Notes: generated from the letters alone by a model not told the origin. Positions 133 to 62,590 are shown, counted from the first letter of the whole stretch. The stretch is 62,590 bases of DNA, filler included, from Asterionella formosa (GCA_002256025.1; 6 parts of 6 records of this genome joined end to end with filler, not necessarily neighbours in it), one strand, 5' to 3'. Translations and numbers: made by a program.

Positions 133-1824
133 TACGAGTACATAAAATTAGCTATTACACTGTCCTGGTACCGGTAGTACACACAAATTAAACCCCATCC
201 TCATTCATGTACCATTGGTACTTGGTACCAGGTACCAGGTACTCGGTATTTCGGTATGCAGCAGCGGTAAGGAGAGGAAGGTGTGACTGATGGGACACCA
301 ACAGCAGGTGAAGGAGGGAAGTATGAGCTGCCAGTTTGTTTTTGGAACTATACACTTGGGTTGTACTCCCAGCAGATCGAGATGCAATGTCGCCTAGTTT
401 TGAAACTAAGGTGGATGACATCAGCCAGTCGACTCTCGTCTTGAAGGAGTGTTGACTCCTGACTACTAGTTATTGGTGGTGGCAGGAGTGACAAGTATGC
501 AGAATGATGATTGAGAGTCCAGAAATGCCTCAAATGTGGTGTTTGAAGAAGTTTTCAACAATTAACAAGTTGATGAACCAACAGAAATGATGCATGATGT
601 GTGTCAAAGAGGTAGGAGGGAGGAAGCAATTCTGTCAGTATTGTAGTCTTTCTGTTACACCAAAAACTATTTGTTCTGTGGTAGGAATGCAAAAAGTTGG
701 AATTAGGTTTGTAAGGTTGCTGAAAATTTTACAAGGGTTGAGCAGGATATAGTAAGAATGGTGGAGTATTGTTGGTTGGCAAAGCGATGTGTGTGGGATA
801 TGATGACTGCCCTACTTTGAGCTGTGTTCTTTTCACTGCCACATTGCAAATTGACAAAATGTATGAGGTATATATTCCAGATAGAACAATGCCACAGATT
901 AGATTGCCAATCAATTGATATCTGCTGATCATCACGCTGGTGGTCATACACAGCTAGTATGTATTTAGGCTATTATTACACAGATGCATGATTTCATACT
1001 ACTGTAGCTACATTATTTTTTTCACTATTTTTCATTAGCTATATATTGATTGTTTTCACTTCATTTCGGGTTTATGTATATTAGACATATACACACCTAC
1101 CAATAATAGACTTGGTCCTCTATTTACTGTAATATAGTGCTATAGTATATGTACTCGTGGTGACTCCATATTAAGTACTCTAATTTATACAATGGTCTAT
1201 TCCCCGCATACACGTACCCTGTTACGGTACCCTGGTACTCCCCGGTACCAGGTACCAGTCGATAGGAGCAATGGTACCTGCTACCAGTACCGGTATTGTC
1301 GCTACCTTTGTGCACAGTACTGGAGTACGAGTGAACTACTAGTGCTAGCTTCCACTACGGGTTTAACTGGGAGTTTAATTTTTTACGACTACGTTCCCGG
1401 TAAGAGTTTAACTATGTATACTGGTGGTTTAATACCAGGTACTTCCTGGTACCAGGTACTACGTAGTAAGGTAATTAATTGGCGGAGGTTGGTCGTTTTC
1501 GAGCGAGGATTTGGGCATCAATTAGTAAATATGACTGTCGATATGTTCCCGGTATGCATCATTGCATCTATGCCTGTATTGAGCATACCGGTATCAAGGT
1601 TCCTGCATTTGAACCCTTAGCTCGAGGTAGGATAAAACACATTTTATTGAGTCAGACTAATCAAACACGTACTTTTCACATGTAAATAGATATGTATAAC
1701 GCTCAACGGAGCTTTCACCAATACATACCCTTTCCATGTGCTTACATACCGGTACCAGGTACTGTCTTGGGACAAAGTAGGGTGTAGGTCCACTCTATAT
1801 ATCGTCAACACATAGAATCTGGTC

Positions 1825-1937
1825 AGAAACTGCAGAAAGGAACTACGGTTTTTTACTATGCTAAGAGACTAGAAAATTCGGGGGAAATCTGTTTATTTGG
1901 TATAATGAAAAAACCGAAGTTCCTTTCTGCAGTTTCT
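1825..1937. repeat. 30-bp inverted repeat (hairpin or MITE-like)
   Basis: agaaactgcagaaaggaactacggtttttt (1825-1854) vs aaaaaaccgaagttcctttctgcagtttct (1908-1937): 29/30 reverse-complement match. Confidence 0.8.
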
Positions 1938-1974
1938 CGCCGGAAGATATATACTGATGCTATTTGAAAGTTAC

Positions 1975-2529
1975 CTATGTATCTGCATCACCAGGTCCCA
2001 TTCCGGCTTCGTGAAAACCAAGAATAAACTGCTGGTTGATTGCAAAGTGTTTCGCTTTTTTTCTTTATCTCACCATGATATTCAACATCATCATCATTGT
2101 TGCTTCTAGCAGATTCAAGTTTAGCAACCTGTTTCTGGCAGGTCAAACATGTTATTTTGATGGTACTTGCCAATCCGTAGGTCTCCGATAACACAATAAT
2201 CAACGGTTGCTTTGTTGAGGTTTCGAACAAGGCCTGTTCTAAGAAGGATTCACATTTCTGTTCCATTGTAATGTGGTTGGCACTAATGTTTCATAGGTAG
2301 CTAAGTTACAAAGTCAAGAACAGTTCTTTGTTTACTATATTCTTCAACAAATGTACAAACAAATGTTTTGCAAAACATATTTTCCTGCAGCAATATCGAC
2401 AATGAAGGATAATCGATGACTTGATTCCTGCCCTGTTGAAAAGGTGGATGAATGGTAGATGTGGTAGATGTGATTGTTATTGAGGCGTTTGCTTGGTGTT
2501 AGGAATCCACCAATTTTGATTTTTGTCAT
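1975..2529 (-). pseudogene. Decayed N-terminal Zn-binding region of a Kolobok-type (Mutator-like domain) DDE transposase
   Basis: Across stops and frameshifts it reads IVDIAAGKYVLQNICLYIC ... ETYGLASTIKITCLTC ... (frameshift) KHFAINQQFILGFHEAGMGPGDA. This is the CxxC..GLAS..CxxC..(Y/F)xIN..GxG pattern of this family. The catalytic region is missing. Confidence 0.6.
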
Positions 2530-2809
2530 TGACTATATTTCGATGTCCCTGACCACCAACTCCTATTTCTGCTAAAAGATGGCCACCACTGGAGTGAGGC
2601 ATGTTGCTGTGGTTGTCTATGTTGATTGTTGTTATTACTGATGTATTAAACTAAAAAATTATACCACAACGTTAACAAAAAATATAGATATCAAGAAGAG
2701 TACTACATGCCACAACCTCACTTGTAGATGATGAGTTTGAAACACCATGTGTACTAGGTGCATTGATGTAAAATATTCTATTGAAAAGAATTAAAAAAAT
2801 AAAATAAAA

Positions 2810-3722: not shown

Positions 3723-3931
3723 CAGACAATCGTCCTGCATTGTTTGTTTGAGAAACCGGTCGTACTGGTATACTACAGTAGGAAGTTACTGTTTACCGGT
3801 ACCTGATTTAACGGTATCTGGCTGGTCCCAGGGTACCAGGTGAAGTATCTAACTAGAAGTACCGGTAGTAGTATTTGTTCAATGTATGAGCTTATTAGTT
3901 AATCCTTGTCTGCAACTCGATCTTCTAGGTT
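3723..3931 (+). repeat. Dispersed repeat of about 210 bp, copy A (copy B at 13363-13571)
   Basis: Colinear similarity cagacaat..gcattgtttg..ctacagtaggaagttactgt..tatctggctggtcccagggtaccaggtgaa..gcaactcgatct..taggtt. Confidence 0.85.
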
Positions 3932-6150: not shown

Positions 6151-8996
6151 GAGCATCTACACGACCACATCGACCAAATACCAAGCCAATTGCAGTTGGG
6201 AGTCATTACACGTCATGTTTATTGTCTTGGTCAAAAAAGCAAAAATATTTTAGCCACAGCATCGACCAAGACCAAATATTTTTTGGTCTTGATTGAGAAT
6301 GACTCCCTTATCGACCAAATATCAGGTATTTGGTCGATTAGACTCCGACCGTAGCCAAACAAAGGAAGCGTTTTTATTGGTCTAGATTATGGCTTGCGCC
6401 GGCAACATAGCTAACGTCGACTGTTTAATTGATCCACAAAGGCTTACAATACACATTTACATTACTCTCCTCTTGATAAAGAAAAATAATAAACTTAAGT
6501 ACAAATACCTTTGAATAATACCGGCAGCTATCTATAAAACTATCTCATGCATAAAATATGACATCTTGCTGAATGTTGTCCTTCAAGTCTTTGACGGTCC
6601 CAATAAGATGATATCGTCATCCATTGGCGTCAAAGCAGGATGCTACTTTAGCTAGTAGGAGCAGCAGGAGCAGCAGGAGCAGCAGCCAACGACGATGATT
6701 CATCGTCGATTTCAGACAAGACCAAAGTTGGAATATTTTGGCGCTGTCAAGAGTGACAATCAATAGCGATGTGCGAGTTTTGTCAAGGCAGCATTGTTCC
6801 TCATGTACCGTGATGTGTCATCATTGGCAGACTGCTGCATGTCAATGGCTAGTATTAATATCTCCTTCCCTTGCATGCAGATCAACATTACGCTCAAGTT
6901 TGCTCAACATTATGTGAAGTTATGCCATGATGGGTATACACTTTCCAAGATAGTTCCGCCATATAACGAAGGGCTTCACGCCAATAAAGGCAATGTCGTT
7001 TAGGGAACAAGTGAAGGAGGGATTATGTGTGATCCAATTGCATCTCAATAATTCAAGTGCTTCGAGTACTCCACTGTCCCACCAGTCCCACCTGTCATCC
7101 ACCACTGATGATTTTGATGTAATAGATGATTCCAAATGAAGAAAAATAATATAGATTACATTTCAATGCTGGTATGATTGATTAGAAAGCTGTCACTCTA
7201 GCTAATTGGAAAAACGGAAGGGTTTCTCTGTTCTAGAATACCAATATACAAATGGATAGTCATATTAGTTTTTGATGGGCAGTTTAAATAGGCGTAGTAT
7301 TAGCTTTGTAAGAAAAAGGAATTTACAGGAAATGTGATGCTTCTAAAATTCCAAAAACTACAGTTACAGAATATCCAAGAAACTTCCTTTGATCCTCCGC
7401 CTCCTCCTTCGGCTGCCTTTTCTCGTTTTCTTCCTGTATATGCTGTATGAGGTTATGTACGGAAGTGTAGGAGCGGTCATCATCTGATGAGTCGCTATCA
7501 TTGCTCATTTCATCAGGCAGATTTGTATGAGTACCTTGGTATCATACACCACACAGTACCATCATTTTCTTATTGGTAGTAATCGGGTTTACCAATATAA
7601 CATAGCAAGCAAAATATAAAACACCTGTTGACACAATCATGATGATACCATATGCCGCCGGACACAGAGAAACTATTTAACAAATAATATTCTACTATTG
7701 TGTGCTGTATAATTAATTCCATACCCTGTTGGTTTTACTGCTGTCTGGTACCTGGTACCAGGTACCAGCCAGGTAGCTGTTGGCTGCCTGGTATAAATCC
7801 ATGCATGGGTTGTTCAACATACATATGTATTGGTCATACATATTTCGACCATACTGTGCCTGTTCACTACTGAATGATTCCAGGTGTTAATCAATGTATG
7901 GTGGTTGTCACAAGATTTCCCAGGTTTGCTGTGGAATCAATCTGAAATTTGAACAAATATTGAGAAGTCTCTCATCAATTCATTTGCCTGATTTTTGTGA
8001 TGCAATAAGCTCCCCTTTCTGCTATTCTGATGCCATGGGACATATCTCACCTATCTGTGGTGTTCCAGTGACAAGTGGCTGATGAAAAGAAGAAAGATAG
8101 TATCCAAGAACACAGTCTCTCTCTCATCATAGTGTAGGGTTCTTGTACATGCTGGCAAAGGAAGTCCTTGGTTGTTGGGAGAGTAAAATAATAGATAAAA
8201 CCCCATGTTATGGTACTTCTGTTCTTGCTGCTGTGAGCATCTGTCCAGGAAAGATCCAGCAGGATTCTCCCCCCCCCCATTTGAGAGAATCGGCAAGCCA
8301 GGGTTGACGATGCTTGGTAGATGGGAAGACATGCTGGGGTGTGGCAACACAGGAAGGTGGCTAGTAGATGTGGAGGCGAACAGTGAAAGGAGGATGCAGC
8401 CAGGAGATGGGGTCGTGTATGGTAAGGCCAGGTGTTGAATGAGAGGAAGAAGGTCGAGGAGAAGGGTGAGTGAGTGCTACCCCTTGTTAGACTCTTATGG
8501 GTGTAATGAGTCATATGCCGCCGGACACAGAGAAACTATTTAACAAATAATATTCTACCATTGTGTGCTGTATAATTAATTTCATACCCTGTTGGCTTTA
8601 CTGCTGTCTGGTACCTGGTACCAGGTACCAGCCAGGTAGCTGTTGGCTGCCCGGTATAAATCCATGCATGGGTTGTTCAACATCATGCATATGTATTGGT
8701 CATACATATTTCCACCATACTACTGTGCTTGTTCACTATTGAATGACTTTGCTTACCTGGAGCTCGTTGTAATAGTTCTCTGCTATAACGATACACATTT
8801 AACAACATTCTTGTGCTCTTTCTATTTGCTAAACGTTTCGGTGCGAGATTTGACTATTCTAGGATTTGGTCGATGCAGTGGAAAAAAAAGAAAATTTCGA
8901 CTATCATTGATTAAAAATATCCTCGACCAAGTGACGTGTATTGATATTTTCAACTGCAATTGGCTTTGGTATTTGATCGATGCGGTGGAGATGCTC
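6151..8996. mobile_element. Non-autonomous or decayed PIF/Harbinger-type DNA transposon (about 2.85 kb)
   Basis: TTA|GAGCATCTACACGACCACATCGACCAAATACCAAGCCAATTGCAGTTG at the left end and CAACTGCAATTGGCTTTGGTATTTGATCGATGCGGTGGAGATGCTC|TAA at the right. This is an imperfect TIR of about 50 bp starting GAGCATCT, with TWA flanks and a subterminal TCGACCAA motif repeated at both ends. Confidence 0.8.
7649..8746 (+). repeat. Two direct repeats of about 230 bp (7649-7877 and 8512-8746) bracketing about 635 bp
   Basis: catatgccgccggacacagagaaac...gttcacta(c/t)tgaatga occurs twice with few substitutions and small indels. Confidence 0.9.
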
Positions 8997-9145
8997 TAAC
9001 ACGATCCAGAACTTGTTCCTTTCAAACTACCAGGTACTCCTACCATTATTAAGATTGCGGCCCCGCAGTTACACATCACGAGGTCTGTTTTTTTCCAAAA
9101 TATTTTTATCATTTACTTGTTATTTAGGCGCGATCGGAGGGTGCG

Positions 9146-9922: not shown

Positions 9923-9967
9923 CAAAAAATAAACGAACTTAAGTGTTTGCTTAATATTTCTACAGAA

Positions 9968-10122: not shown

Positions 10123-11341
10123 CGTGCAACTAAGTATACCGGTAATAAGAAAAGGTAAAATTAGCTTTCACCAATACAACCCTGTAGATGTAGAGCAATC
10201 CTCTTCCAAAAAGTCGACCCGATCGGCTTTTTCAACAGTGTTCAAAATATTGGAATCAGAATTTGTACGTGCAAAATCGTTATCGTATACTTTGAGTCTT
10301 GCGTAGGAATGTTTCGCTGAATAATTCTCAGTCCGAAAAGACTCCAGGGTAAGCTCCCGCATCACTACACATATTCTGATTGGTTGAATTGAATTTATTT
10401 CACCTGCTATAGATTCGCTGAAGTGTCCCGGTCTTGTAAAATCTTGCCAGCCACACTTGAGACACACGTATTAGATGTACTGAATACTGTTTGGTAAAAT
10501 CAGTCCCGGTAGTTTCATCCTGTCTTCAATTATGATGAACCAATATTATGTGCTACCTGGTACTCCGAATACCGAAATATGGGACTTTGGTACTGATTTA
10601 CATGCCGGCACATACCTTTGGGCGTGGAGTGATATTGAAACTACATACAGCAACGTAGGATCAATATAAACGTATAAACAAGAGCCATGAGCATACATGT
10701 TGGCATAATCCTAATTTACAAGTGTGTTTTGGAGTTGAGTAAAATTATGTCTACATCCAGCAACATACAAAAAGTATAAACGTTTAAATATCATTTTTTA
10801 TCATAAATGGAACTCTATCAATCTGGCCCCGTTTCCTATTTAATTCAAATATTTAAATGGACACTCGAATCATGGGAATTCATAGTAGGAAACTCCCTGT
10901 TCCACGCCGTTTTTACAACCCTAGTGATATTTTCTCCGAACTAGGGTTAAGCCGGGGCCGCAACCTTAATACAGGGTCGTTGTTTGGTTCTAGTTACTGC
11001 CAGGCTGTAATTATGATAAGCTGCGAACTCGATGTTGATACTGTAGCCAATAAGACTGACTGTCACATTCCAAATACATGACTAACGTAAAACGTTCGGA
11101 TTGTCTTCGAAGGAATGATACTCGGCACATTGTTATCCAAAGTGGTGGGATTAGGGACGATTGATGATTGACTCATTGAACAGGGCATAATTTGAAGTTG
11201 CCTACCGCAATCCAGTACCCGCATTCCGGTACATTTTATCGACATCAATTATTCTACCTCTCATCACGTCCCTTGTTCTTATTGCAAGGAATTACTCGGA
11301 CGTTGCGGCTTTGCACAAATCAGCTTTCAAAAATCTCAACA

Positions 11342-12910: not shown

Positions 12911-13362
12911 CAACCCCCATTACCACTATGTTAAAAGGTCTCGTACTCCTTCCTGTCTGACGGGTTTCATCTTAAGTAGGACTTACCTGTTGTACCACTA
13001 GTGTTGTTATCTTCGTTCTGCTGCTAGTCTTCGTGTTAGTTTTCGCTTTTGACCTTGGCCTTACTCTGTCAATTCTCACTGTTTCTTAGTAATTATAAGC
13101 TTAAACTAAAACTAAGTTTCACTCCCATTCATCACACTTCGAGAACCTGTTCTTCGTGTTCCCTTTTTTTGATCTAAGACATTAATCTCGGGACGCACCA
13201 TTTGACTCATTGGACTATGGTCGAGTCCACAGTCCTTGTGACTCATTATAGACATCGATGCTATATTCTTGACACCGCTATACCCGGTATCGGTTCTACC
13301 GGACATAGCACCTGGTTCCCCTGGTACCAGGATTCTCTGTAGGTGGTACCTGGTACCTCCAC

Positions 13363-13571
13363 CAGACAATTGTCCGGCATTGTTTGAGAAACTGGTACAC
13401 TACAGTAGGAAGTTACTGTATACCGGTACCAGGTACCTGATATAACGGTACCGGTATCTGGCTGGTCCCAGGGTACCAGGTGAATTATCTAACTAGAAGT
13501 ATTAGGAGTAGTATTTGTTGAATATATGAGCTTATTAGTTAATACTTGTGTGCAACTCGATCTCCTAGGTT
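13363..13571 (+). repeat. Dispersed repeat of about 210 bp, copy B (copy A at 3723-3931)
   Basis: Same colinear match as copy A. Confidence 0.85.
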
Positions 13572-15742: not shown

Positions 15743-17307
15743 TTACATCCTACCATGTGTTGCTGCATCTTTGTTCTGCTCTGTTGCACTTGCAATATAC
15801 GGTACTACGGTAGACTACCAGTAACTACTCTACCGTAGATGCAATGGTATGTAGGAGTAATCTACAGGCGGTACTACTTGGTACCTGGTACCAGGTAGCA
15901 GTACCGGCGTACGAATGAGGCAGAATGGTACCATTTACCAGTACCTGGTTGGTTACCCAACACCAGTATCATTGAACCTGGCACGTACCACAAGGTACCC
16001 GGGTTTTTCACGAAGAAGCATGTTACTGGTACATTTCTAAACGAGATTATCTTTGCCTCTACTTCTACAAGCTAGCTGACACAAATCAGCTGTCAAGCAA
16101 CGAAGTTGCACACGTATCTCTTCTCCCACATACACTAATTAACGTAGAGACTACTTGGCATGATTGTCATTGGGTATAGGATGAAGTTTGGGAACCATCA
16201 TACGTCACCTAATGTCAACTATAGAAAGCATTTTATCCAATAGTAACTCGTGGGATGTGCCAACCTGCAGGCACAATTTGTTTTCTCGATTGTTATGTGA
16301 TATAAATAAATATTGTAAAGCTCCATTGATGTGCTGTTGAAGGAAACTATCAAAGTTCATCACCACACAATTCTCGGATGATCAACATTAGGTGCCGTGA
16401 TTCATATCATCCTTCCTGCTTCGGTATCGTCGCAAGTGCTCCGAAAGCAAGTGCATTGTGATCACATCGAGATCTTTATCATAGTGATAGTCGAAAGGGC
16501 TATTGCGATTCGTTCTTGTAGCAATCAAATTCTTGTTCAAGTTCGTCGCGATCGCTTGAGTTGAACAGCGGAGACTTGCCATTTTGCCTCGAGAATTCCG
16601 CAATGTTCTTCCATTCCTCTCTCAAAGTCACTACGATGCTCAGTGACGGCCTTCTTCACGACTTTGGCCCTTCATCCATGGTCGTGTCAGCGGTGAATGG
16701 AACAAATGCTGCCTCCTTGGCAGTCCGCGATCAGCTATATCAACATACTGGGGTGACGACATCTCAGATTCCTGTTTGTAAAGATTCCCACCACGGTAAG
16801 AAGACTACCAGTATCTTTGTTTGGATGATCTACCCGGAGCATCTTGTCACACGCTTGGATTTAATCGTATGAATCGTATTTTTTTCATCACCTTCGCCTG
16901 GTATCTAGTACTGGTAGCAAGTACCAAGCTGGTGACTCCGGTCCACAGACTTTGTTCGAATCCTTTGAATCGGATTGTCCTGTCACCACCCTTTAGCCGG
17001 GTACCAAGTTCGTTGACTGTCGTCAGTACTGCAGCAAGCTGAGTCAGAGGAAAGGGCAATAAGACATTGCGTCACTGGTCGTTTTCGAATAGTTCCAACC
17101 ACTGGTTTTTTTTTTCTCAGATCAACTGGTTCTTGCCCTAACTTCCAACTTCAATATTTCGCAGCACGTCTGAATCTATTGGATCGCAAAGGTTCGCAAG
17201 CCTCTACACCAGATTCAGTACCAAGTCTACAATCCCAAAATTCCTTGGCGATTTTGCGTTCGGATTCCTCTCAACCTACACAAAATAGGGCAAGTGAATC
17301 ACAATCA

Positions 17308-17688: not shown

Positions 17689-18621
17689 ACTTGCTACACC
17701 ATGTTGTTCCCCTTTTTCCTGTACAAATCACAGGGAGCAGTTGCTGACTATAATGAAAATCGTACACACAGGTGCACGTATGGCTCGCTATCTTTCGTGG
17801 CTTTTGTCATTTGAAAGACCAAATTAATTGTTGAGTTGCAAGGAATCCATCCATTCGGCTATATTCTAAATGGACAATCATTCTAGAACAACTCTGTAAC
17901 AAAATGTAAACACATTCCTATCTAATTTGACTGAAGGACATTTATTGCCCATGACTTTTCCAGTTTCATTTCGCCACAGCCTATGCAGGAGATGATCCAA
18001 CTGCCGGTGAATTTCCAGCAAAAGAAATTTCGACGCATGTTTGTTGTGCGTTTTCGGCTTCATCGTCGAAGGTGGGCCGTTGCATCACTTGGTTTTCTCA
18101 TCGTATAACGTTACGGATACTACCGGTACACACAATTCACACGACTACCCCGGTCATACCTGCATTTTGTATTGCTAATCAAGTCACCACACTTCACTCA
18201 TGCGTGGCACTTGGTATATTTGAAACACTCGCGTGGCGAGCGGTCAATACGCACGCCCATTCTTCGAAATGCTGTCAGATATCCTCCTCTACGACCTGTA
18301 CTGTATGCAGAATAGACTACCAGTTCGGTACGCACGATACAAGACGGTATTTGTTACCGTACTCCTTTTGTCTAGCCGTACGTAGTCTAGTCGGTATGCA
18401 TCATTCAGGAGTGATACAAAATCCTTGGTGCTTCCTCCTCTGCCTTTTGCGGTTCGCTCACATCATTCTACATACTGGCATGAGTATTAATTACAGGTAG
18501 CCCAGCTCGTCTGCGCCTCGCCCTCCTGATACTTTGTGCTTTAAAATTACATCAAAAAGAAGCACCCTCCAAAATAAGTCGCTACCGATAGTACTGCTAC
18601 GCACCGGTATCCGTTTTCAGC

Positions 18622-22397: not shown

Positions 22398-22989
22398 GAT
22401 AATAGCAGTGTTGGGGGAGGGACAAACCTTGTCATCAACAAGAAAAAGGTGAGCTAAACAAACTATTTAGGAAAATATTGATTCTTTTGCTTCTATTTTT
22501 TCGATTTTACTGTTACTCTTACTATTGCGGCATGATGGTCTGATTGCCGTTGTAAATACTGTAAATATATACCGGTACCAATAATCTGGTGGCTACACTG
22601 GTCTGGTCTGTACTGCGCTTGCTTGGACGTACTCACCAGCCAGACACTAGAACACCCCCTCAACACCCCCACCCCAACCATGAGGTGATTCTTATCTTGA
22701 TTGATGCTATTATATTGCCTGGAATACCATGACTTTAGATCACTCATAATACTATTCAAGTAGTAGGACATCTACTTTGAAAAAGGAGTAGTCTACAATG
22801 ACGACATGACAGTAAATGATAGTACTAATATCAATGCTAGTATTGTTAATAGTATTGAATTATTGTCTACAAATGCAACTACTGCACTTGTGGTTAATAG
22901 CATGATCAACAATGCATTGTCCAGTTGGCTAAAGAGTTCATGAGCGTTAGAGGAGAATTACTGGAGAAGAACAAGAAAGTAAGTAAGTT

Positions 22990-35290: not shown

Positions 35291-36663
35291 ACAAAATTCT
35301 AATTGAATGGAGTCTCGTTTGAAGAAGGGAGTGATAAGCTGTCAAACATTAAACAAGGTTATGCTTGGTATAGCCAAGTTCTGTGGGCATGATGGGGGAA
35401 GTGAAAGATTTATGACAAAAGGAAATAAATTATTGATAGCAAATATAAAAAATGAAAGAAAAAATCATTTATTTTAATATTATCAAACATGCTTTACTAC
35501 TTAACTTGTTTAGCTTCTACATTTTGACCTGCATCAACTGCTCAATTACTTCCTCAAGGTCTACCAAGCACAATGAGCATTTGCCACGAGGATGATTAAT
35601 TTGAGCAGACGTCAAGCCTTAAAGCAATAAAATGATGGAATAATGACGCCATGGTGTGTAAGTGTGTTGATCATGATGCATGTATCAAAATTCTTTCAAA
35701 CACACATGAATGTACGAAAAACGTATCTGTGTACACAACACAGGATATAATTAATTACTTTAGCCTTTGGTAGAATGCTAGTACTAGTACAATCCAGTAC
35801 CAGACAGCTACCGGACAATTGTCTGGGAGACCAGCATGAAGGTGATCTACACTACTAAAACTTCAACCGAAAATCACTAGCTCCGCCGTCTTGTCTTGAT
35901 GATATGTAGTTTGAACAGTTTGATAATTTTCTCAAATAGCAGACCATTGTGCAGTGGAGTTACACAGAATCCTGGTGCTTTGCCTGGTAGCTAGAACTGA
36001 ACTGATGTGAGCTCGTTTCTTCTAACGTCACTTTGACTCCAGCAAAATATTCATTGCAATTACAAAATTTTATCTCATTTTTTCGTTTGTTATGTTTGCA
36101 TTTGTTCAGCTTGTATTCATTTTTGATTGACACACATGTGCCTTGTGCCCTTGTTTGCCGGAGTGCTTGCAAATGCCTTTGTACTTCTGTTTGTATAGAG
36201 CAATTTCGTTTGTGCTCTTCATTCCCTTTAGCTTTCGTTTGTGGAATGCAGTGAAGTCGACTCATTCGACTGTGAGTAGAGGAGCTCACTTTAACATGCC
36301 ACCACAGTGCTTCTCCTCATCGAAACAAATACCGGTATACTTTCAATATCCGCTACATGGTACTGGTACCGGAACCTGGTACCGGTACCCAGTTTGATTG
36401 CTCGCCCTCAGTTAGTACTGACAGGAGTATTCGGAGTACCAGGTACTATGCTGGCATGAATTATTAGTTCGGAGTGATGCTGCGATGAAGAATGTGATCT
36501 AGACAATCTGATTTTACAAATACCATACCATTACTACTTATCTCCAAACACAACAACACACATTTATGTCATTACAATACCGTGTACACACAGCGACTAT
36601 TGATAGTTAAAGACTCATTGACTGAGCAACCAATTTTTGACAGGGAATAGAACAATCCGCACG

Positions 36664-41039: not shown

Positions 41040-43498
41040 ACTTATTCAGTCATCCAAAGGAATGTAAATGAGCTTGTTGTGGTATCTTATTATAGTATGC
41101 TAGGAATGCTCTTTTTTGCATTGTGAAGGGATTGCTAGACCAACCATTAGAGCAACTGTTTCCAAGATAACTACCGGAGACATTCNNNNNNNNNNNNNNN
41201 NNNNNNNNNNNNNNNNNNNNNNNNNNNNNNNNNNNNNNNNNNNNNNNNNNNNNNNNNNNNNNNNNNNNNNNNNNNNNNNNNNNNNNNNNNNNNNNNNNNN
41301 NNNNNNNNNNNNNNNNNNNNNNNNNNNNNNNNNNNNNNNNNNNNNNNNNNNNNNNNNNNNNNNNNNNNNNNNNNNNNNNNNNNNNNNNNNNNNNNNNNNN
41401 NNNNNNNNNNNNNNNNNNNNNNNNNNNNNNNNNNNNNNNNNNNNNNNNNNNNNNNNNNNNNNNNNNNNNNNNNNNNNNNNNNNNNNNNNNNNNNNNNNNN
41501 NNNNNNNNNNNNNNNNNNNNNNNNNNNNNNNNNNNNNNNNNNNNNNNNNNNNNNNNNNNNNNNNNNNNNNNNNNNNNNNNNNNNNNNNNNNNNNNNNNNN
41601 NNNNNNNNNNNNNNNNNNNNNNNNNNNNNNNNNNNNNNNNNNNNNNNNNNNNNNNNNNNNNNNNGCTAGCTCGTTGCAATTCATCCAGAAGGCCCTGCAT
41701 TGGTTTGGTTGAAAAATGCAGTTTAATTGCCCAGGTTTGAGAGAACATTAATAAGGGGCAATAATGTCGTCTTAAGCAAGCAATAATTATTCAACACAAT
41801 ATTGTGATTTTCCTTTATTAGAGCAGTACAACGGATCAAAAAGGGATATGACCTTGTTGTCAGGATGCATATGAGAAAAAAATAGACAACAAATCCAATC
41901 TTCGAAAGTGGCTTTTTCAATGCAGAACCATAGAAAATCATTACTAGTTGCTTCTTTTTCATGCACTAGCTTTTTCCCCACCCTTTTCAAATTGACCTTT
42001 CTTAGAATTGCTATCTCCCCATCGCACATAATAACAATAGCGCCACATGATTTGGACGCTTGGCAGTGATCATAGCATACCAGCAGTATATTGAATGCCA
42101 ACAGTAAGCAATATAGTGCATCATGACAATCATGTACAGATACAGGTAGCTACCGGTATGTGATACATACCGTATCATGCATCATATGTAGTTGTGGCTG
42201 CTGCCAAACTTGCCTTCGCCTGTTGCTAAGGGCCATTCTTATCATTTTTCATCGTGTTTCACTAAATTTTGAAAATTTTTGAAAATGTGCCAGCAGCAGT
42301 AACTCGATTTGAACTGAATTTCATTCATTCCAAACTTGACACTTTATCACTAATTTCTTTTAGAGTTTATCATGCTGGAGTAAGATGGATGGTTAGCGGT
42401 AACATCGAAATATATCTGAGCAGTAATATACATATGCGTAGCCTAAATAAAAATAACCGGAAAAAATAATAAATATATCATGTGACGGAGCCTGCTTATA
42501 CATCCTACTGATACCAGTACTGGGAGACTTGTCAACATGTTGCTTGTCAACGCATTGACCATGTTAATAATTGGTCATTTCTCCATTAACATTGCAAACG
42601 AGTTACTGCACCTTTGAGGACTAATATATAATTGTATGAACGATGCATAAGAAAAGAAAATATACATATATCTTTAAAATTGCGTAAGAAATTACGAATC
42701 TTCGATGTAAAATAATATTTGTCAATTTATAGGAATGCAAATAGAACTATTGATTTGTTCCAGCAACAATGACTATAGCTATGATGACTACTAGCTAATA
42801 CGACTAAAAAGATGCCATCATTTGACATTAGGGATGATTGCAAAAGTGGTGTGAGGCTAGACATTGAATTATTGATGCCATTAGATCAATCAATTGCATC
42901 AGTGGTATTTTCATGTTGCGCTATGATGCTGATGTTGATTTTCCCATCAAGAAAATAAATTAAATAGTGGTCGCTTGCATGTTTACATTTATATTACCAT
43001 TATGTACAAGTATTTTTGTATTTTAGCTATATGCATTTGTAATTTTATATCCGATGATGTCAGAAATCATAGCCCTATCCCCTAATTTCGGGCTGGTTAG
43101 GGTACGTCACCAGTCCTACCGGTACATCATTTGCAAACCATCATCCTTGGTGTGGGGTTTTTAATCAGCTCGCAGGAATCATCACGCAAACTTAGCGGCT
43201 GTTGTGGTACCAACCTGGTACCTGGTACCTACGGTTCTTCTCCGCAATAAGAAAAGGCAGACAAACTGTCGTATGCCTATGTTGTGTATTTGAACGATAG
43301 CCATCTTGCATTTTTGACACCTTTTATACCGATGTGATGACACCAGCGAAAGAAGCCCAAATGGGAAAGTGCATCGAATCTCACCATATTTCACATAAAT
43401 GTTTGAAATTGAATCAAACTAGTTGGCGTTCTTTGTGTGCAAAGTGAATATTACAGAGGATTAGATGCAAAGGATATCCAAACAGAAGGCTTGAAGAG

Positions 43499-44671: not shown

Positions 44672-47600
44672 TTAGCCTCTGCGCCCGTGGTAGTTACTGT
44701 GATAGTGCCTAACGTTGTTCTTGTGACCTGTTTCTTTGGATGACACCTTCTTGGACGTCTCGACAGACTCAGCAGCAACCTTCAAGTGTGAACGACCACT
44801 CATGCGACTGCTCAGCTTGTCATCCTTCTTCTCGAGGGTGGATATAGGAAGCAGTCTCTTCTTCGCAATATTTGACCCAGTCGACACTTCATTTTCCAAC
44901 CTGGTACCAGATACTTCGCTGGTGTCCAAAGATTTATCAGGAAAAACTGCTTCTTCTGTAGTGTTCGTCGGTGTTGCCAACAAAAATTTCTCTGTGGAAA
45001 GATGTTTCCTGTTAGACTTTCCTTCAACATCACGCTTATGTTTTGAACCAGTTTTCGAATCCATATCTTGTGTCTCCCTTGAAGTGATCACTGACGAATC
45101 TGATTTGAAACTCCCTCCTTTCCTTAATGAGGAGTGCTGGATTTCCCTCGCTCCATTTTCCGAAAACGAGGTGGAATTACTGCTGGATAACGTCGATCGC
45201 AAGAATCCTTTCTTCTCGAACCTAGATCCCTGCTGAATATCCTCTCGCTTCGTTTCGTTCCTTTCATCATTCACTGTTGTCATGTTGTCTATAAGTTCCT
45301 TCTTGTCCTTTTCAGCGAGAGTTGATGGTACAACGACGCCTTCACCTTTGCCGCTCTCTTTTAATTCGACATTGACAGTATCGTTCTTTGCATTCCCAAC
45401 CATTTCCTCCATGGCATGTAGCTTGGGATTTAATGCGTCAAGAACATTCCCAGCAAGGGATTCCGACAGCGATTTGTTGCTCATTACACTGTAGTCCTCG
45501 TTGATGCTTGCGGCATTGGTGTTTCCGACACTGACAAAACTAACGTTTTTGCCCGCTGACAAGTCTTCTTGATGCTCATTGCCTGTGTCTTTGGTCGTGA
45601 CAGTAACATTCGTTTGTACCTCGGCCGTAGGGGGAAGTATCAAATGCGCATTGTCCTCCGTCGTGGTTGTATTGTTGTCGTCAACTTTATCTCCATCCTT
45701 GTTTATGGTATTTTTCTCATTGCTTTTATCGATTGGGAACTTTGGATGAATCTGTGCGGTGCTTTCACCACTTTCCTCTTCATCATGAGTTTTCACATTA
45801 ACTCCACTGCCGTCACCAACGGTGAAATTGCCGATTTCCTCACCACTTTTGAAAGTGGTTTCTCGGTTCTCATTTCCATCGCTAGGTAGTTTCGGAGGAG
45901 TCAAGCGATCTCCAATCTTGGCCGAACTGTCAATGACTTCTTCCCCATTGCTTCGACGACCAAAACCTTTCATACCGGTGCTCAAGCCATCTCCATCCGC
46001 GGTTTCATTGCTTCTTTCTCTTCTACCAGAAAGATTTGGCAGGGTGAAGTTGTCTTTGAAGTTACTCTGATTACCCTCGACATTATTTCCATGTTCAACG
46101 TGCGGTTTATTGTCTTTATTGCCAAGCCCGGAAACCTTTGGAGAGGCGACGCGTCCTTCACCCTTGGCTAATCCCTTCTCCTCACTTAGGTTGTCATCAT
46201 CATTATCGTCAGGGATTTCTCGAGGAGGTTTATCGGTAACATTCCCGCCACCTGGGATCGTATCCATATCCTTGGATTCACCTTGCTCGTCATAAAGTGT
46301 AGGTTTCTCGGCAGTGCTTTCTCCACCTTCGCTCCCACCGCCGCTGTCAGTCTTTTCGTTTTCTCCTTCATCGTCAGGAAGTTTAGGAGGAGCAAAGCGT
46401 TTCTCGGCGGAGAGTTCGTCTTCGGATACATTCGTTTCATTGTCCTCTCCTTTGTTCCTTAGTTTTGAATTGACGACACTCTCGCCATCTTCGTCTTCTA
46501 ATTCATCCTTGTCTTTGGTTTCATTCTCCTCCCCTTCATCATTGCGAAGTTTAGGATCGGCGCCATCTTCGTCTTCTAATTCATCCTTGTCTTTGCTTTC
46601 ATTCTCCTCCCCTTCATCATTGCGAAGTTTAGGATCGGCGCCATCTTTGTCTTCTAATTCATCCTTGTCTTTGGTTTCATTCTCCTCCCCTTCGTCATTG
46701 CGAAGATTAGGATCGGCGCCATCTTCGTCTTCTAATTCATCCTTGTCTTTATTTTCATTCTCCTCCCCTTCGTCTTCTAAAAGATCCTTGTCTTCGGTCT
46801 CATTCTCCTCCTCTTCTTCATTGGGAAGCTTTGGATCGGCGGCGTCCTCGCCTTCGGACAAAGCATCGCGAGTGGTTTCGTTACCCTCTTCTTCATTGTG
46901 AGGTTTTGGATCGACAGCACTCTCGCCATCTTTATCTTTGGACACATCCTTGTCTGTCTTTGGAGTTTTGAATTGTTTGTCGCCAGTGCCATCTTCGCTG
47001 CCTTTTTTTCCCGGTTTTCCAAGCTCTCCATATTCGTGATGTTTCTCGTCAGTGCTCTCGTCCGCGCCATCTTCGCCGTGTTCTTCCGCGGATTCCTCAC
47101 CGAGTTCGTCTTTTTTGTCACCATTCAACGCAAGCTTATCGGATCCAGTTTTGGGGTTTTCAATAGCAAAATGATCACGATTTGTGTCAACTGAATCTTC
47201 TTCACTTCGCTTAGCATCGGATACATCCCACTGTTCTTTCTTCGCTGCGGCATCGCTGATTCCAGCAGCAGAACGTCCTTCATTAGACGATTTCTCCCAC
47301 TCCGCGGAAGTCCTGATACCTCCACTAGAAACAGCTGAAGTCGTCTTGATCCCTCCAATTTTTTCCTTGTTCGAGCTCGCGTTTTCACCATCACCGGTGG
47401 CCTTCATTTGGTTTCCAAACGCATCAATGCTGCGGCCGATTGGCAAGGTCGAGTCCGCTAGTCTCTTCGCTGGCAATGGCGGTGCTGACGGAGACACCGA
47501 CCAACTAATAGCGAAATAAAGCACCACGACAACTGTCACGACTAAACACGCCTGCTTGGCCAGCAAACTCTTGGATTGGATTTTGACTTGTTGAGCGCCA

Positions 47601-47704: not shown

Positions 47705-49149
47705 GCTCTGAATGCACCAACAAACGACAAGAGGGTGTTACAAGAGTNNNNNNNNNNNNNNNNNNNNNNNNNNNNNNNNNNNNNNNNNNNNNNNNNNNNN
47801 NNNNNNNNNNNNNNNNNNNNNNNNNNNNNNNNNNNNNNNNNNNNNNNNNNNNNNNNNNNNNNNNNNNNNNNNNNNNNNNNNNNNNNNNNNNNNNNNNNNN
47901 NNNNNNNNNNNNNNNNNNNNNNNNNNNNNNNNNNNNNNNNNNNNNNNNNNNNNNNNNNNNNNNNNNNNNNNNNNNNNNNNNNNNNNNNNNNNNNNNNNNN
48001 NNNNNNNNNNNNNNNNNNNNNNNNNNNNNNNNNNNNNNNNNNNNNNNNNNNNNNNNNNNNNNNNNNNNNNNNNNNNNNNNNNNNNNNNNNNNNNNNNNNN
48101 NNNNNNNNNNNNNNNNNNNNNNNNNNNNNNNNNNNNNNNNNNNNNNNNNNNNNNNNNNNNNNNNNNNNNNNNNNNNNNNNNNNNNNNNNNNNNNNNNNNN
48201 NNNNNNNNNNNNNNNNNNNNNNNNNNNNNNNNNNNNNNNNNNNNNNNNNNNNNNNNNNNNNNNNNNNNNNNNNNNNNNNNNNNNNNNNNNNNNNNNNNNN
48301 NNNNNNNNNNNNNNNNNNNNNNNNNNNNNNNNNNNNNNNNNNNNNNNNNNNNNNNNNNNNNNNNNNNNNNNNNNNNNNNNNNNNNNNNNNNNNNNNNNNN
48401 NNNNNNNNNNNNNNNNACTTATGCAACGATAAAATGATTATGTAAAATATATGTCGAGGTCTACATTCAATCTCGAGAGCGTGACAGGACCAACGGAGTT
48501 TACTACGGTCCTCCTGTACGAGAACTGATGTATGATTTACTGATGTATGATTTGCTGATCCGTTCCTCGACCTCGTACATCGATTCGAAAACTGAAGCTG
48601 AAGAAGCAAAGAGCTCTTAAGAAAAATCATAACTGAAGCTGAAGAAGCGAAGAGCTCCTCTTTAGAAAAGTCATAGACCGGTACGGGTACGGTAGTCGTT
48701 CCCACCTCCGGTTGGTGGACGAAAACAATTGCGTATCACCGTAGAACCTACCGTACTGTTGTTCTAACAGGTATGTACAAGTCCAAGGGTAGGAGATGCA
48801 AACCACCAATACCAGGGGGTGTACCAGGGTACAAGTTCAAAACTGTAAGCAATCACGATCTCAACCGTCTTTGTCATTATTTCTATGTGTTATTACTTGA
48901 ATTCTTTCACCCTTGATTTTCTATGTTTCATGTACGTAGCAAGCAGCAAAGCGTTGTTCTCAATTTTCGCGGAGCTAGTTCATATTTTCGTCATGGTCAA
49001 GGTTGCGACAACATGATGCAGGATTCTCCAGCTACTCACAACCACTACCTTTGCACTCTAGTGTTAAATTTGTACAAAGTAAATTGCAAAATTGTAGCTA
49101 AATAGTTATAAACCAGTGCGCCTGTAAGACAAAACAGAATTACAGTACC

Positions 49150-49972
49150 AGTAAAAAACTGCATTGACCCACTGACGGTATAAAAAACACGTTTTGTAAT
49201 GAAAAATCATTCATTTTCTATTTCTTGAGCTCCAGAATGTATCTCGTGCATGTACCGGATGGAGTCATACTGTTAGTTCTCAACCTATTGGACGTCAATC
49301 TTTCGTTAATTTAGGTCTAAAGTGACAATCGAAAAAAAAGTGAAAAGCACAGATTATCCCAAGTTTGGAGTTCTCATCTTTTATTGTGTGCAAAGATGAA
49401 TATAAATTTCTCGCATTTTGTGTCTTATCCATAACCTTGTCAATAATTATTCAGTAAATAAAAATTGATGAAACCTGGTGCAACCATGTAATACCATTAT
49501 CTATGTAGGCAGACCATTATAAGTGGTACGGAGTACCTTGTACCTGGTACCTATGAATATGTACCTATGGCTGTGCACAAAACGGACACTGTACATCTAT
49601 TGCACCTGGTACCAGGTACCAGGTACCAGTACCTGTACAATGTACCGGTACCATGTATGGAGCATCATGCATTTTATGTCTTTTTGCTTTGAACCAAACA
49701 GGATAATCTGTGTTCACCAATGAATATAAAATTACTTTCAGGTATGTGAAAAATTTCATATACTGCATTGACCCACTGAGACTGAATTTTACGTCTAGAT
49801 GTATAAATATCTTCTGAACCATATGTTCAATTTAACTAAGAAAAGGATGCTAATGTACTGACGCCTTATGCCATCAATACTTTCGAACAGATTTCAGAGA
49901 GAAGGGAGCTGAGTGTTAGTCGAATTAATCAAACGAACGGGATAAAACAGTGGGTCAATGCAGTTTTTTACT
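49150..49972. mobile_element. 823-bp non-coding element with perfect 25-bp TIRs (MITE-like)
   Basis: AGTAAAAAACTGCATTGACCCACTG (49150-49174) and its exact reverse complement (49948-49972). A third partial direct copy lies at 49762-49778. No clear TSD. Confidence 0.75.
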
Positions 49973-54962: not shown

Positions 54963-56186
54963 ATCCTTCGAATCAAGAAATGTGTGTTGGGCCGAGGGTT
55001 AAAAATAAGTTGAAAGAATCTCAATGTCCAAGCGGTAGTGTGTGCTGGTGGCTCTAGATTGACAGAGAGGAAGGATTGATGAACGCTTGAAACGAAGCAC
55101 TTCCTACAAACCCAAGTCTTTGCGTCGGGTGAATGCAACAATCAACATCTCCCTCTCGCTCTTTATCATCATCGGGGCAAATGTGAACTGCATCAAACGA
55201 AGAAATCAGTCTATGACGAACATCAGCTAAAATCGTTGTTCCTGAATGATATTTTATTAAATATTTATATGAAGTATCAAGATACACGACTGAAACTTTG
55301 AGGAGAGTTTACAAGATTCAGCCACAAAGAAAGCACCAAAACCTATTGCGTGAGAGGCTCGCTCGGTTCACCAATGGATACCACCCCAGTTCAACTCGAT
55401 ATACCGGNNNNNNNNNNNNNNNNNNNNNNNNNNNNNNNNNNNNNNNNNNNNTTAATTAATTAANNNNNNNNNNNNNNNNNNNNNNNNNNNNNNNNNNNNN
55501 NNNNNNNTCGAAGGCCAAACCTCATCAACAAAGCTTCTAGCAAACTTGACATTGCTATGATCAATAACAAGTGCATGCCATCCAATCTTCTTTCCGCCCT
55601 TCTTTTTAATGAAAGTTGACGAATTCACTGACTCAAGTCTCCTAAACATGACGTCCAATAAACTATCAAGGTCCGCATTCACGGTATCTTCGACATGACC
55701 TTGTAGGAAATGACGAAGTAGCTAAAATACGGTGAGTGTGGTCATGATGCTGATCAAGCAGTACTCGAAGTCTCCATTTAACCACAACCCGATATGTGTT
55801 CTCAGGAAGTGGAACTGGAAGAATGGGGTCATTCTTCCAAGTCGGGATGCACGTAGGCTGTTCGAGATCACCATTGATTTTTTTAAGCCGAGATAGGATA
55901 CGGTACCAATTTTTCCAACGAAAGAACTTGGCTCTCTATTGATGAGGATGACACGGACACCGACTTTTTATTTGCAGGCGCAAGGAACGATTTTCTTGAT
56001 TTCGGAAGGCTTCCGGGCATGGTCGAGAACTGATTTATTGGAGACCCTGTCGTACACATTGACCAACGCTCGCTTTGGCCTTCGTGTAGCATACAACGTT
56101 CATACATATAGCTACCGGTAGCTAATATATATATATTAATAGAAATAACTAGTACTGCTGTGTTGTGTGCATGCATATCTAGAATC

Positions 56187-59000: not shown

Positions 59001-59100
59001 NNNNNNNNNNNNNNNNNNNNNNNNNNNNNNNNNNNNNNNNNNNNTTAATTAATTAANNNNNNNNNNNNNNNNNNNNNNNNNNNNNNNNNNNNNNNNNNNN

Positions 59101-60795: not shown

Positions 60796-61059
60796 NNNNN
60801 NNNNNNNNNNNNNNNNNNNNNNNNNNNNNNNNNNNNNNNTTAATTAATTAANNNNNNNNNNNNNNNNNNNNNNNNNNNNNNNNNNNNNNNNNNNNTTTGC
60901 TAAATTACCGGTACCTGGTACCAGGTACTAGCTACTTGGTACCGGTACACGATACCACAGCCATCTCATTTTCACCATCGCTTGATACATAGAGGACCAG
61001 TACCTGGTACCAGGTACCAGGTACCAGGTCGTGCCAGTGTACCAGGTACATTATTCACG

Positions 61060-61632
61060 AAATTCTACCAAAGTATTATTTTTCTGTAGGGCTCCGGTAC
61101 CTGGTAGTGTTCTACTCTGGACAGGTCAATACTGTCCGGTACCCCTCCCTTGCTTGACCGCGGTGAAAATATGGTATAGAGAAAGGCAAAAATTCTACCC
61201 AGTACTAGTACTTACTGGGGGTAGAATTTTTTTTCACATTTTGGTAGAATATTCTACCAATGGACCAATGGAAACCTGCAGTATGCCATGGTATTGTCCA
61301 AGAAATTCTACCATGATACAACATGGTATGAAATGGGATTGAAGTAAAAAATTAAACTAAATATCAACATGGCGACAATGCCAACAAGAAGAGTGAATGA
61401 ACCTACACAATCCCCTGTTTACAAGAGTGTCATAATTGCTGTGATGTCATACAGAGATGGCATGAATATTCTAAAAGCTATGAGTTTAGTCCAGAGGAAC
61501 TTGGGGAAGTTACACCTGAGGATGTCTACAAATGGATGGCTATGAAAGTCTATGGCCATCCTGATCCAAACAATGATGACAATCCAACACATGGCCAGTC
61601 TTCTTCCCTGGAATACTACGTCTGCAAATAGA
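61060..61632 (+). pseudogene. Crypton-like (tyrosine-recombinase transposon) 5' remnant with palindromic ATTCTACC motifs
   Basis: ATG at 61369 gives MATMPTRR..YKSVIIAVMSYRDG, then after a frameshift near 61460 HEYSKSYEFSPEELGEVTPEDVYKWMAMKVYGHPDPNNDDNPTHGQSSSLEYY. This resembles the N-terminus of stramenopile CryptonS proteins. The YR catalytic region is absent. Confidence 0.55.
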
Positions 61633-62214
61633 AAACATCTAATTTGTGTGATGCATCTTATAATGGCAGTCATATGATCATATAAATTCGATTTATCATC
61701 TAATATGAATAATATTTATCATCATATAGAATATTGTATGTATATATATATCGATATTGATACATGTATTTTTGTATGTATACCATCACTGGCTGCAAAC
61801 ATCAACAACCGCCCAATCTGAATGCATGTTGCATGAGTAAGACAGTCATACATTGGTATGTATACATATCTACGGTAGCAATCTATAGTTTAGAAGACAT
61901 CATAGATATACATATATGAATATGCATGTTCGAGTTGATTTGTGGGTGAGTACTGGTACCAGGTACTACTGTCTATTGTATCATCTACTATTGTACTACC
62001 TGGTACCCTGGTAGTACCAATATGTTGGACATATTTTTGTTTGTAAACATATGTACACGATTGATTTGAATTTTAATCATGCCCATCACCGGGATACCTA
62101 CCAGTATATATGTAGCACACATATTTTTACATGTAAATGTACATACCAGTATGCATACGATTGATTTGAATTTGAATCATGCCCAAGATAGGAATAGGGT
62201 TAGGGAGCGACTTT

Positions 62215-62590
62215 GGTATACCGGTATCTAAAGGTGATTGAGGGTACGCAATATCACGTAGTTGTACAACAATGTGGCATTAGTATCTGTTGGCGATGAA
62301 GGGGACGCAATAACACTTTCTCGTACAAACAAGGTGACATTGGTATCTATTGTCACCTCGTACTCAGGCTACAACACGTTCATCAGGTCGTGGAAAACAA
62401 TGATATCCTCATGCATTGTATATATTTGAATTATGTATAAGCTTAATTGATGATAGTATAAACATTATGTCTATATATTTATACGTTTTCAAATTTTTAT
62501 AAATGTATACATAGCCTATACATTTGAAATCATGTTTAGAGGTTCCTTGTTATGCCTACCGGTACCACATGATCCTGAAATGAAAGATCA
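62215..62590. repeat. Reverse copies of the 60-bp unit joined to the repeat shared with 27775-28020
   Basis: ggtatcta..gatgaagggg(t)acgcaataac..tacaaacaa is the reverse complement of the 60-bp unit, followed by caggtcgtggaaaac... Confidence 0.75.

Follow-up and report, generated by a model that had tools for sequence, protein, structure and literature searches.

The window analysed here, a 62,590-nucleotide stretch of DNA from the diatom Asterionella formosa (GCA_002256025.1), is scattered with short palindromic words that obey a single grammar, namely the dinucleotide TA, a block CCGG or CCWGG (W, A or T) and TA again, with neighboring blocks linked via shared TAs into (GGTACCW)n arrays. The units show a polarity, are absent from confirmed coding sequence (CDS) and are in excess just upstream of genes. 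They account for whole insertions and deletions (indels) between near-identical sequences, and they recur in several diatom-like organisms. We see roughly an even chance that they are excision footprints of a TA-targeting Tc1/mariner-type transposon with CCAGG...CCTGG ends, expanded by slippage and purged from exons; that a transposon supplied the CC(W)GG letters is something we only infer.

A TA-anchored unit, its distribution and its changes between alleles

An earlier note on this DNA had drawn attention to palindromic motifs built on GTACCAG, and their enrichment held up against a formal background (100 dinucleotide shuffles for GTACCAG, an order-2 Markov model for the other words), with motifs present at 12 of the 12 cluster positions it listed. 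GTACCAG/CTGGTAC occurs 60 times in the window, against a shuffle mean of 4.68 and a shuffle maximum of 10, and the observed and expected counts are 27 and 0.73 for TACCGGTA, 32 and 0.64 for TACC[AT]GGTA, 62 and 13.9 for GGTACC and 40 and 8.4 for ACCGGT. AGTACT, which had been counted as part of the motif set, is not enriched (23 vs. 17.6 expected). Nearly all of the top-scoring 6-, 7- and 8-mers listed are pieces of the one grammar, and the units, at about 1/kb overall, are the most over-represented 8-mers in the window; a scan with 13 core words located 88 clusters covering 1083 nt. Outside the CC(W)GG grammar, TAGCTA (TA-GC-TA) is found 24 times window-wide where 9 are expected.

Each enriched word can be parsed as TA, block and TA, GGTACC being the junction of two blocks that share a TA. 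The five most enriched blocks between TAs are CCAGG (21 vs. 0.3 expected), CCGG (27 vs. 0.6), CCTGG (11 vs. 0.3), CCAG (11 vs. 1.1) and CTGG (8 vs. 1.3), and the mirror controls GGCC and GGWCC never occur between TAs in the window. In the pooled diatom-like DNA, 209 kb made up of the window and 64 metagenome loci (147 kb), TA-CC(W)GG is followed by TA in 1102 of 1331 cases (83%). A duplicated TA on both sides of the remnant is a trait of Tc1/mariner footprints that TA-CCGG-TA and TA-CCWGG-TA share, and the absence of a target-site duplication reported earlier does not hold at the level of the single unit, where the flanking TAs look like one.

Evidence on how units change comes from four near-identical loci from different metagenome assemblies (alignment A2), which differ by 0-3 substitutions per pair over 582-1189 aligned columns. 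Five distinct indels separate them, each one a motif unit of 6 or 7 nt. In two arrays the alleles are a single unit apart (+TACCAGG and +GGTACCA), a third indel duplicates the variant unit TACCAGT, and the other two set a plain TA against TACCGGTA, once as CCCTTAGGC to CCCTTACCGGTAGGC and once as GATAGGTAGG to GATAGGTACCGGTAGG; as all these comparisons are undirected, each difference may be a gain or a loss. Repeat copies differ in the same manner. The window copy at 3700 (w3700) and a relative, L020, are separated by a 6-nt ACCGGT gap at unit 3858-3866 (GAAGTAGTAG against GAAGTACCGGTAGTAG) and a 7-nt GGGTACC gap, the window copies w3700 and w13340 by a 13-nt gap that reads by eye as AGGTACC plus CCGGTA, and TACCGGTACC at 62557..62566 stands exactly where the paralogous repeat copy 27767-28060 is 6 nt shorter (alignment A3). 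Filled and empty alleles that differ by TA plus remnant at a TA, a further trait of Tc1/mariner footprints, occur twice in A2 and once each in alignments A1 and A3.

Units arise by mutation, and to this extent the mutational process suggested earlier is supported, copies and alleles differing by exactly such units. Its proposed mechanism, fold-back or cut-and-fill at GTAC/CCWGG sites, is not supported: the CCCTTAGGC-to-CCCTTACCGGTAGGC site has no GTAC, no CCWGG and no local fold-back template, and the target is the TA dinucleotide, with CCGG or CCWGG as the inserted letters. Local fold-back was rejected as the source of new units on our own reading that it would add other letters at CCCTTAGGC. 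The 3′ tail of a long or short interspersed nuclear element (LINE/SINE) was also rejected, given that A and T units occur side by side in one array and that plain TA sites can carry units of 6 nt.

GGTACC words no more than 40 nt apart give 27 spacings in the window, of which 15 measure 7 nt and one measures 6 nt, and Tandem Repeats Finder reports period-7 rows. The arrays fold into predicted DNA hairpins of -6 to -14 kcal/mol (z -1.9 to -3.6), and runs of the same W dominate the long arrays of the pooled loci, a set selected with the AA/TT pattern. These features, together with the one-unit differences in two arrays of near-identical alleles and the duplicated TACCAGT, would suit a self-propagating palindromic microsatellite in which GGTACC(W) expands, contracts and flips by slippage and hairpin or fold-back synthesis, isolated units being decayed arrays. 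We consider this origin rather unlikely. The head-to-tail copies and unit-length polymorphism of a heptanucleotide microsatellite are seen in the arrays only, not in isolated units or in those at plain TAs, and two of the five allele indels are TACCGGTA at plain TA sites outside arrays, one of them the template-free CCCTTAGGC. Where 0.7 TACCGGTA sites of whatever kind are expected, the window has at least eight that are fully isolated. Neither the fixed phase, with TA at both ends in 83% of the 1331 cases, nor the polarity described below is expected of such a microsatellite.

The rarity of the motifs in intact CDSs, also claimed earlier, is borne out. CDS blocks were taken from ATG to stop and are approximations from open reading frames (ORFs), not annotation. 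Within 19.6 kb of Pfam-supported or long ORFs we found none of the 32 TACCWGGTA and two of the 27 TACCGGTA sites, both of which lie upstream of the first ATG (by 39-48 nt). No unit of 59 falls in a confirmed ATG-to-stop CDS, and a single one, at 18121 in a block not verified as exon, falls in the 21.5 kb of CDS blocks (p = 4e-10). Conversely, the 500-bp stretches before 12 start codons, 4997 bp in all, contain 21 of the 59 units, a density of 4.2/kb compared with 0.61/kb in other non-coding DNA beyond position 16000 and 1.7/kb in the transposon-rich first 16 kb. The excess over other non-coding DNA beyond 16000 is seven-fold (odds ratio 6.8; the nominal p of 9e-8 is inflated by the clustering of units), and by our own count these stretches hold one or more units for 7 of the 12 genes.

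Given this seven-fold density, the units may have a regulatory side-effect. It is quite improbable, in our view, that they are primarily a selected regulatory or chromatin element of diatom promoters, such as the site of a dimeric factor or a nucleosome-excluding palindrome, distributed according to function. The upstream density and the 7 of 12 genes speak for such an element, and of the two features expected of a promoter cis-element, enrichment near gene starts and conservation between species, the first is seen within 500 bp upstream of ATGs. In contigs of another diatom the arrays likewise stand between genes, and among the other diatom-like loci most contigs that have a Pfam-supported gene carry arrays upstream of one or more genes, an observation which has no null model and is not weighed as evidence. 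However, units are dense in the first 16 kb as well, at a distance from genes, and their number and presence vary between near-identical alleles. Perfect period-7 arrays are, in our judgement, unusual for binding sites, and regulation leaves the origin of the units unexplained. In full-text searches the motif strings turned up primers and constructs alone, diatom promoter palindromes turned up nothing relevant, and a Phytophthora transcription-factor paper contains no GTAC, GGTA or CCGGT.

Scanned for the pattern, public metagenome contigs yielded 123 loci, several of which, at 40-47% G+C, carry an equally dense grammar; some bear diatom-type genes (DUF6824, a fucoxanthin-type light-harvesting protein, a TPI-GAPDH arrangement). 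That diatom-like contigs from both freshwater and marine settings share the grammar points to a phenomenon of the whole lineage. Summed contig depth is very high over cluster bins, a quantity that cannot separate high-copy transposons from motif abundance and was not used as a copy number. Among the best-supported contig indels listed, none falls at a cluster, which is evidence in neither direction. In a second diatom-like organism (L010, L029, L034 and the same contig series), non-coding DNA is rich in TA-GTC-TA and TA-GAC-TA (65 and 57 in the pool vs. 10 expected), with runs such as GTACTAGTAC and TAGTAGTAC, so other TA-phased short blocks accompany the CC(W)GG units. Among L001-L123, contigs of 57-74% G+C hold single (GGTACCA)3-type matches whose surroundings are not enriched, and they seem to have no part in what is seen in diatoms; in the Pfam scans, genes of bacterial type (leucyl-tRNA synthetase with Obg, MutS, CorA) were met only in lower-G+C loci, e.g., L047, L060 and L022. 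GGTACCWGGTACCWGGTACC had no match in viral contigs.

This recurrence also bears on whether the motifs could be an artefact of sequencing, amplification or assembly, which is extremely improbable. The window does contain scaffold-like N44-TTAATTAATTAA-N44 spacers and its assembly is unpolished, but its DNA, including the cluster at about 15880-15999, is bridged by contigs from runs of two other studies (X2 record 24, 15694-20000; X7 record 29, 15686-16633), and unrelated metagenome assemblies have the same grammar. The motifs are not specific to a single assembly.

Possible excision footprints and other candidate sources

If the units are excision footprints, insertion of the transposon would duplicate a target TA, and excision would leave the duplicated TA with 4-5 terminal letters, i.e., TA-CCGG-TA or TA-CC(A/T)GG-TA, the middle A or T coming from either element end or from a mismatch as two overhangs anneal. 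Units that share TAs would produce GGTACC and the period-7 (GGTACCW)n arrays, and these hairpin-prone arrays could gain or lose one unit via replication slippage and be eroded by point mutation. Selection would remove units from exons, and non-coding DNA would gather them, with the highest density in the 500 bp before genes, where the DNA may be open to insertion or tolerant of units. Classical mariner inverted repeats start with a word very similar to CCAGG. Among the references of PMC7017206 is a thesis about Tc1-mariner elements of the diatom Amphora. According to a passage of PMC6943129, Tc1/mariner excision cuts the non-transferred strand a few nucleotides inside the element and leaves its first or last 2-4 nt between TAs, the canonical Sleeping Beauty footprint being TACAGTA or TACTGTA. 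By analogy, TA-CC(A/T)GG-TA can be read with the same TA-x(A/T)x-TA logic for an element with CCAGG...CCTGG ends.

The polarity of incomplete units fits a unit composed of a flanking TA and the overhang CCAGG, at times one letter trimmed or joined to a resected partner. The window has 19 TA-CCAG/CTGG-TA and 5 TA-CAGG/CCTG-TA, the pooled loci have 120 and 9, and TA-CCAGG-x outnumbers x-CCAGG-TA by 25 to 7 in the former and 85 to 42 in the latter. The block spectrum fits a prefix plus a suffix of CCAGG/CCTGG, but the 3+0 and 3+3 forms are missing. Head-to-head CCTGG-TA-CCAGG (CCTGGTACCAGG) prevails over the reverse order (CCAGGTACCTGG) by 8 to 0 in the window and 24 to 18 in the pool, and in 8 of 10 window chains of at least two CCWGG units CCTGG comes first and CCAGG last.

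That chain order, the shared direction of the one-sided units in window and loci, and clusters without outer TAs at 13320 and 44900 could instead indicate internal-deletion remnants or miniature copies of a transposon with CCTGGTA-heptamer inverted repeats, bounded CCTGG...CCAGG. We find this very doubtful, as no consistent sequence exists inside or outside the units beyond the heptamer, chain ends in the pooled loci are T..A in 20 cases, A..T in 14 and same-type in 71, and the plain-TA events comprise 6 nt only. A family of miniature inverted-repeat transposable elements (MITEs), or any other dispersed family, is not indicated either. Flanks of clusters are unrelated, in agreement with the earlier statement that they are not one dispersed element, except that self-comparison gives two cluster pairs (7745-7793/8608-8638 and 3794-3867/13419-13480), both of them copies of ordinary repeats. 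No inverted-repeat pair beyond the motif itself and no consensus in the sequences after the motif was found in the window and loci.

Several points weigh against excision footprints, the first being the missing donor. No element with TA-CCAGG...CCTGG-TA ends was found in the window and the 64 loci (~209 kb), where both an ungapped and a gapped search for TA-CC(W)GG...CC(W)GG-TA pairs that agree at their inner ends brought up only arrays matching other arrays. Pfam found no transposase family among 272 ORFs of the window and diatom-like loci (18 + 86 + 69 + 99), its mobile-element matches being confined to RVT_1 (57306-59000) and copia gag/pol (L026). With one scar per jump at constant element copy number, scars can far outnumber elements, and since only ~209 kb was searched the missing element is weak counter-evidence. 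As the cuts known for Tc1/mariner have overhangs of 2-3 nt, a remnant of 5 letters would be unusually long. Tc1/mariner elements have no known preference for promoters, and the seven-fold upstream excess is also expected from a selected regulatory motif. Another 63 window sites (32 CCWGG and 31 CCGG), roughly half of those in excess, are flanked by a TA on a single side. TA-CCA-TA and TA-TGG-TA are not enriched in the window (5 and 5 vs. 6.5 and 5.3 expected) and TA-CCATGG-TA does not occur there, and the 8-to-0 head-to-head bias is unpredicted by simple independent footprints. Separately, a repeat starting TA|CCAGGTGAAG (3836, 13476) was tried as a terminal-inverted-repeat element and rejected, having no inverted partner and an unrelated other end near 4186.

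Another candidate source is an unknown process other than transposition that inserts ACCGGT/ACCWGGT into T^A, which could be a nuclease/ligase activity, a domesticated transposase or the repair of breaks with insertions copied from other arrays. The plain-TA events can equally be written T|ACCGGT|A, no element was found in the window and loci, arrays often stand where repeat copies stop matching (242, 3832, 13320-13357), as break-repair filler would, and the 8-to-0 order is unexplained by simple footprints. We nevertheless hold such a process to be rather unlikely. A constant four or five letters between TAs is known only from transposon excision, as far as the relevant passage of PMC6943129 goes, and no candidate gene was identified in the DNA examined.

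Clusters in their genomic setting

The window is eukaryotic DNA of ~40% G+C with long, intron-poor ORFs. Pfam recognizes cellular genes (WD40, Na_H_Exchanger+TrkA_N, ABC-F, BCD1, MsrA/B, DUF1990, RING, isochorismatase), two DUF6824 ORFs and a reverse transcriptase. The Atlas clusters nearest to the K+-efflux protein are eukaryotic, Bacillariophyta being commonest, and the window DNA is present in freshwater, lake and 'algae' metagenome runs of 13 studies; we regard the source as a freshwater diatom. The first 16 kb is transposon debris with many contig variants per position and the end of a copia-type pol ORF at 9119-9570, followed by a gag-like start at 9967-10135; beyond 16 kb the window is mostly gene-dense. 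In one run, positions 1-16000 lie under 50-116 different contig variants, which makes this region a graveyard of high-copy retrotransposons.

All clusters below come from the core-word scan, with the strand given as '.'. At 164..242, CCTGGTACCGGTA and a decaying heptamer array ending GGTACCAGGTACCAGGTAC form two clusters, and contigs of two runs diverge right after 242 (28 loose ends in X1, 56 in X2). A composite of GGTACC, CCCTGG, CCAGG and CCGG blocks at 1226..1295 is followed by TACCAGGTAC..CCTGGTACCAGGTAC at 1433..1459 (hairpin -6.4 kcal/mol, z -2.0), an isolated TACCGGTA at 1586..1593 and a TACCGGTACCAGGTAC chain at 1747..1762. Close by, 1785-1977 is a 193-nt inverted repeat of itself (69% identity, arms around GAAACTGCAGAAAGGAAC), which may be a small hairpin element separate from the GGTACC grammar. 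Three units at 3794..3867 lie in a repeat copy paralogous to 13419-13480.

The head-to-head array CTGGTACCTGGTACCAGGTACCAG at 7745..7793 (hairpin -11.4 kcal/mol, z -3.1) sits within a 172-235-nt direct repeat, and its second copy is at 8608..8638 in the direct-repeat partner. These direct repeats (7649-7877 and 8512-8746, 94% alike) frame 7585-8783, a 1199-nt stretch skipped by single-copy-depth contigs in three runs, which join 7584 to 8784 via 10 other letters; some form of the locus, or a paralogue, therefore exists without it. Isolated units are TACCAGGTAC at 9028..9037, TACCGGTA at 10137..10144, adjoining the end (10151) of a stretch skipped by some contigs, and TACCTGGTAC at 10554..10563. 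CCTGGTACCAGG and GGTACCTGGTACC at 13320..13357 stand just upstream of the start of the match to the paralogue at 3700-4200, the cluster at 13392..13480 lies in a repeat copy paralogous to 3764-3867, and GGTACCTGGTACCAGGTA..GTACCGG..GGTACC..GTACCTGG at 15880..15948 is the cluster bridged by contigs of two other studies.

Many clusters in the gene-dense part stand before start codons. TACCGGTACC at 22570..22579 is 173 nt upstream of the first ATG of the minus-strand WD40 gene (22397), while GGTACCGGTA at 26170..26179 and TACCAGGTACCGGTAC at 26489..26504 precede the first ATG of the K+-efflux/Na_H_Exchanger gene (26133) by 37 and 356 nt. GTACCGGTACC at 31040..31050 is 47 nt upstream of a DUF6824 gene (first ATG 30993), and TACCGGTA at 33941..33948 and CCTGGTA..GTACCGGTA at 34200..34218 lie 187 and 446 nt upstream of the ABC-F gene (33754). 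Three clusters at 36330..36446 are 218-334 nt upstream of the BCD1 gene (36664), and TACCGGTAC with GGTACC..CCTGGTACCTGGTACC at 43117..43229 is 270-374 nt upstream of the DUF1990 gene (43499). The DUF6824 domain is present in each of two adjoining minus-strand ORFs, 29703-30134 and 30100-31122; these are either two genes in tandem or a single gene that a frameshift or an intron divides.

Upstream of a small ORF that starts at 61371, four clusters at 60906..61143, including a 4-unit heptamer array, lie at 230-465 nt, with hairpins of -12.2 and -13.8 kcal/mol. The same ORF is preceded within 250 nt by all four copies of AATTCTACC (61061-61312; 0.58 expected), possibly a promoter motif in its own right. 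One of these copies makes up the palindrome GGTAGAATATTCTACC, with a core similar to a heat-shock element of the GAAnnTTC type.

The unit at 18121..18129 (TACCGGTAC) lies in a putative exon of the 17017-19470 gene region. A 1021-aa ORF without a Pfam match contains CCTGGTACCAG in its 3′ part (44900..44910, without outer TAs) and 78-nt tandem repeats at 46483-46897 (3.7 copies, 96%), and upstream of it, past a masked stretch, are ACCGGTAC and TACCAGG..GTACCAGG at 48677..48828. The remaining clusters are CAGGTACCGGT at 29043..29053, isolated TACCGGTA at 29362..29369, 42151..42158, 56113..56120 and 62219..62226, GTACCAGGTACC at 29420..29431, GTACCTGGTACC with the array CCTGGTACCAGGTACCAGGTACCAGTACCTG..GTACCGGTACC at 49540..49652 (hairpin -13.3 kcal/mol, z -2.6), and CTGGTACCAGGTAC with TACCTGGTACCCTGGTA at 61953..62013. 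A 60-nt tandem array (50405-50869, ~5 copies, 74-81%) lies in the large intergenic stretch and has inverted relatives at 62223-62350.

The five spacers are identical and located at 27667-27766, 55408-55507, 57205-57304, 59001-59100 and 60796-60895. The last four are ~1796 nt apart, and the segments of ~1.7 kb between them carry reverse-transcriptase-type ORFs, one (59101-60795) with a direct repeat of period 762 nt inside (97% over 933 nt). The arrangement looks less like native sequence than like short contigs joined one after another, or like masking.

Comparison with known systems and significance

Sleeping Beauty and other Tc1/mariner footprints, so far as the passage of PMC6943129 describes them, resemble the units in having constant terminal letters between TAs, a central A/T ambiguity, shortened variants, and presence or absence at TA sites between otherwise identical sequences. 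The units differ in having 4-5 letters instead of 2-3, no donor element in the ~209 kb, extreme density, period-7 chaining and a head-to-head order bias.

Tandem repeats in yeast promoters are, like the arrays, short, upstream of genes and subject to whole-unit changes between close strains, whereas the arrays have a near-perfect palindromic unit and a fixed TA phase, and single units appear de novo at TA sites. HIP1 of cyanobacteria is also a short palindrome many-fold over-represented genome-wide with no agreed cause, but it is prokaryotic and common inside genes, and the diatom units are eukaryotic, excluded from CDS, TA-phased and array-forming. MITEs and the prokaryotic REP/BIME repeats are similarly small, hairpin-forming, dispersed and mostly intergenic; the units, however, have no consensus beyond 6-7 nt, no element-length inverted repeats and unrelated flanks.

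The excision-footprint mechanism, if right, is already known. What seems undescribed is the scale, the units being the most over-represented words of the window, along with the palindromic period-7 chaining and the concentration before genes in several diatom-like organisms. We found no description of such repeats in a full-text collection that leaves out most subscription-journal papers, and a search there on mariner-like elements of diatoms gave unrelated papers only. A bolder and rather unlikely possibility is that an active process in diatoms writes ACCGGT/ACCWGGT into TA with a preference for promoters, the arrays mutating about as often as all substitutions together and serving as fast 'tuning knobs' of expression in several diatom lineages. 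The estimate of rate is based on the five unit indels vs. 0-3 substitutions per row pair in A2, and the process could be due to an unknown enzyme, or else to a very mobile transposon with unusually long scars of 5 letters or its domesticated descendant.

If the excision-footprint reading is true, one transposon family would have written the most over-represented words of a diatom genome, and a count of TA-CC(W)GG-TA units would give a simple read-out of past cut-and-paste activity. It would also call for caution when the intergenic DNA of diatoms is assembled, used for primer design or searched for variants. Hypervariable, hairpin-forming arrays would have been seeded before more than half of the sampled genes, and would give ecologically dominant algae a means of varying their promoters fast.

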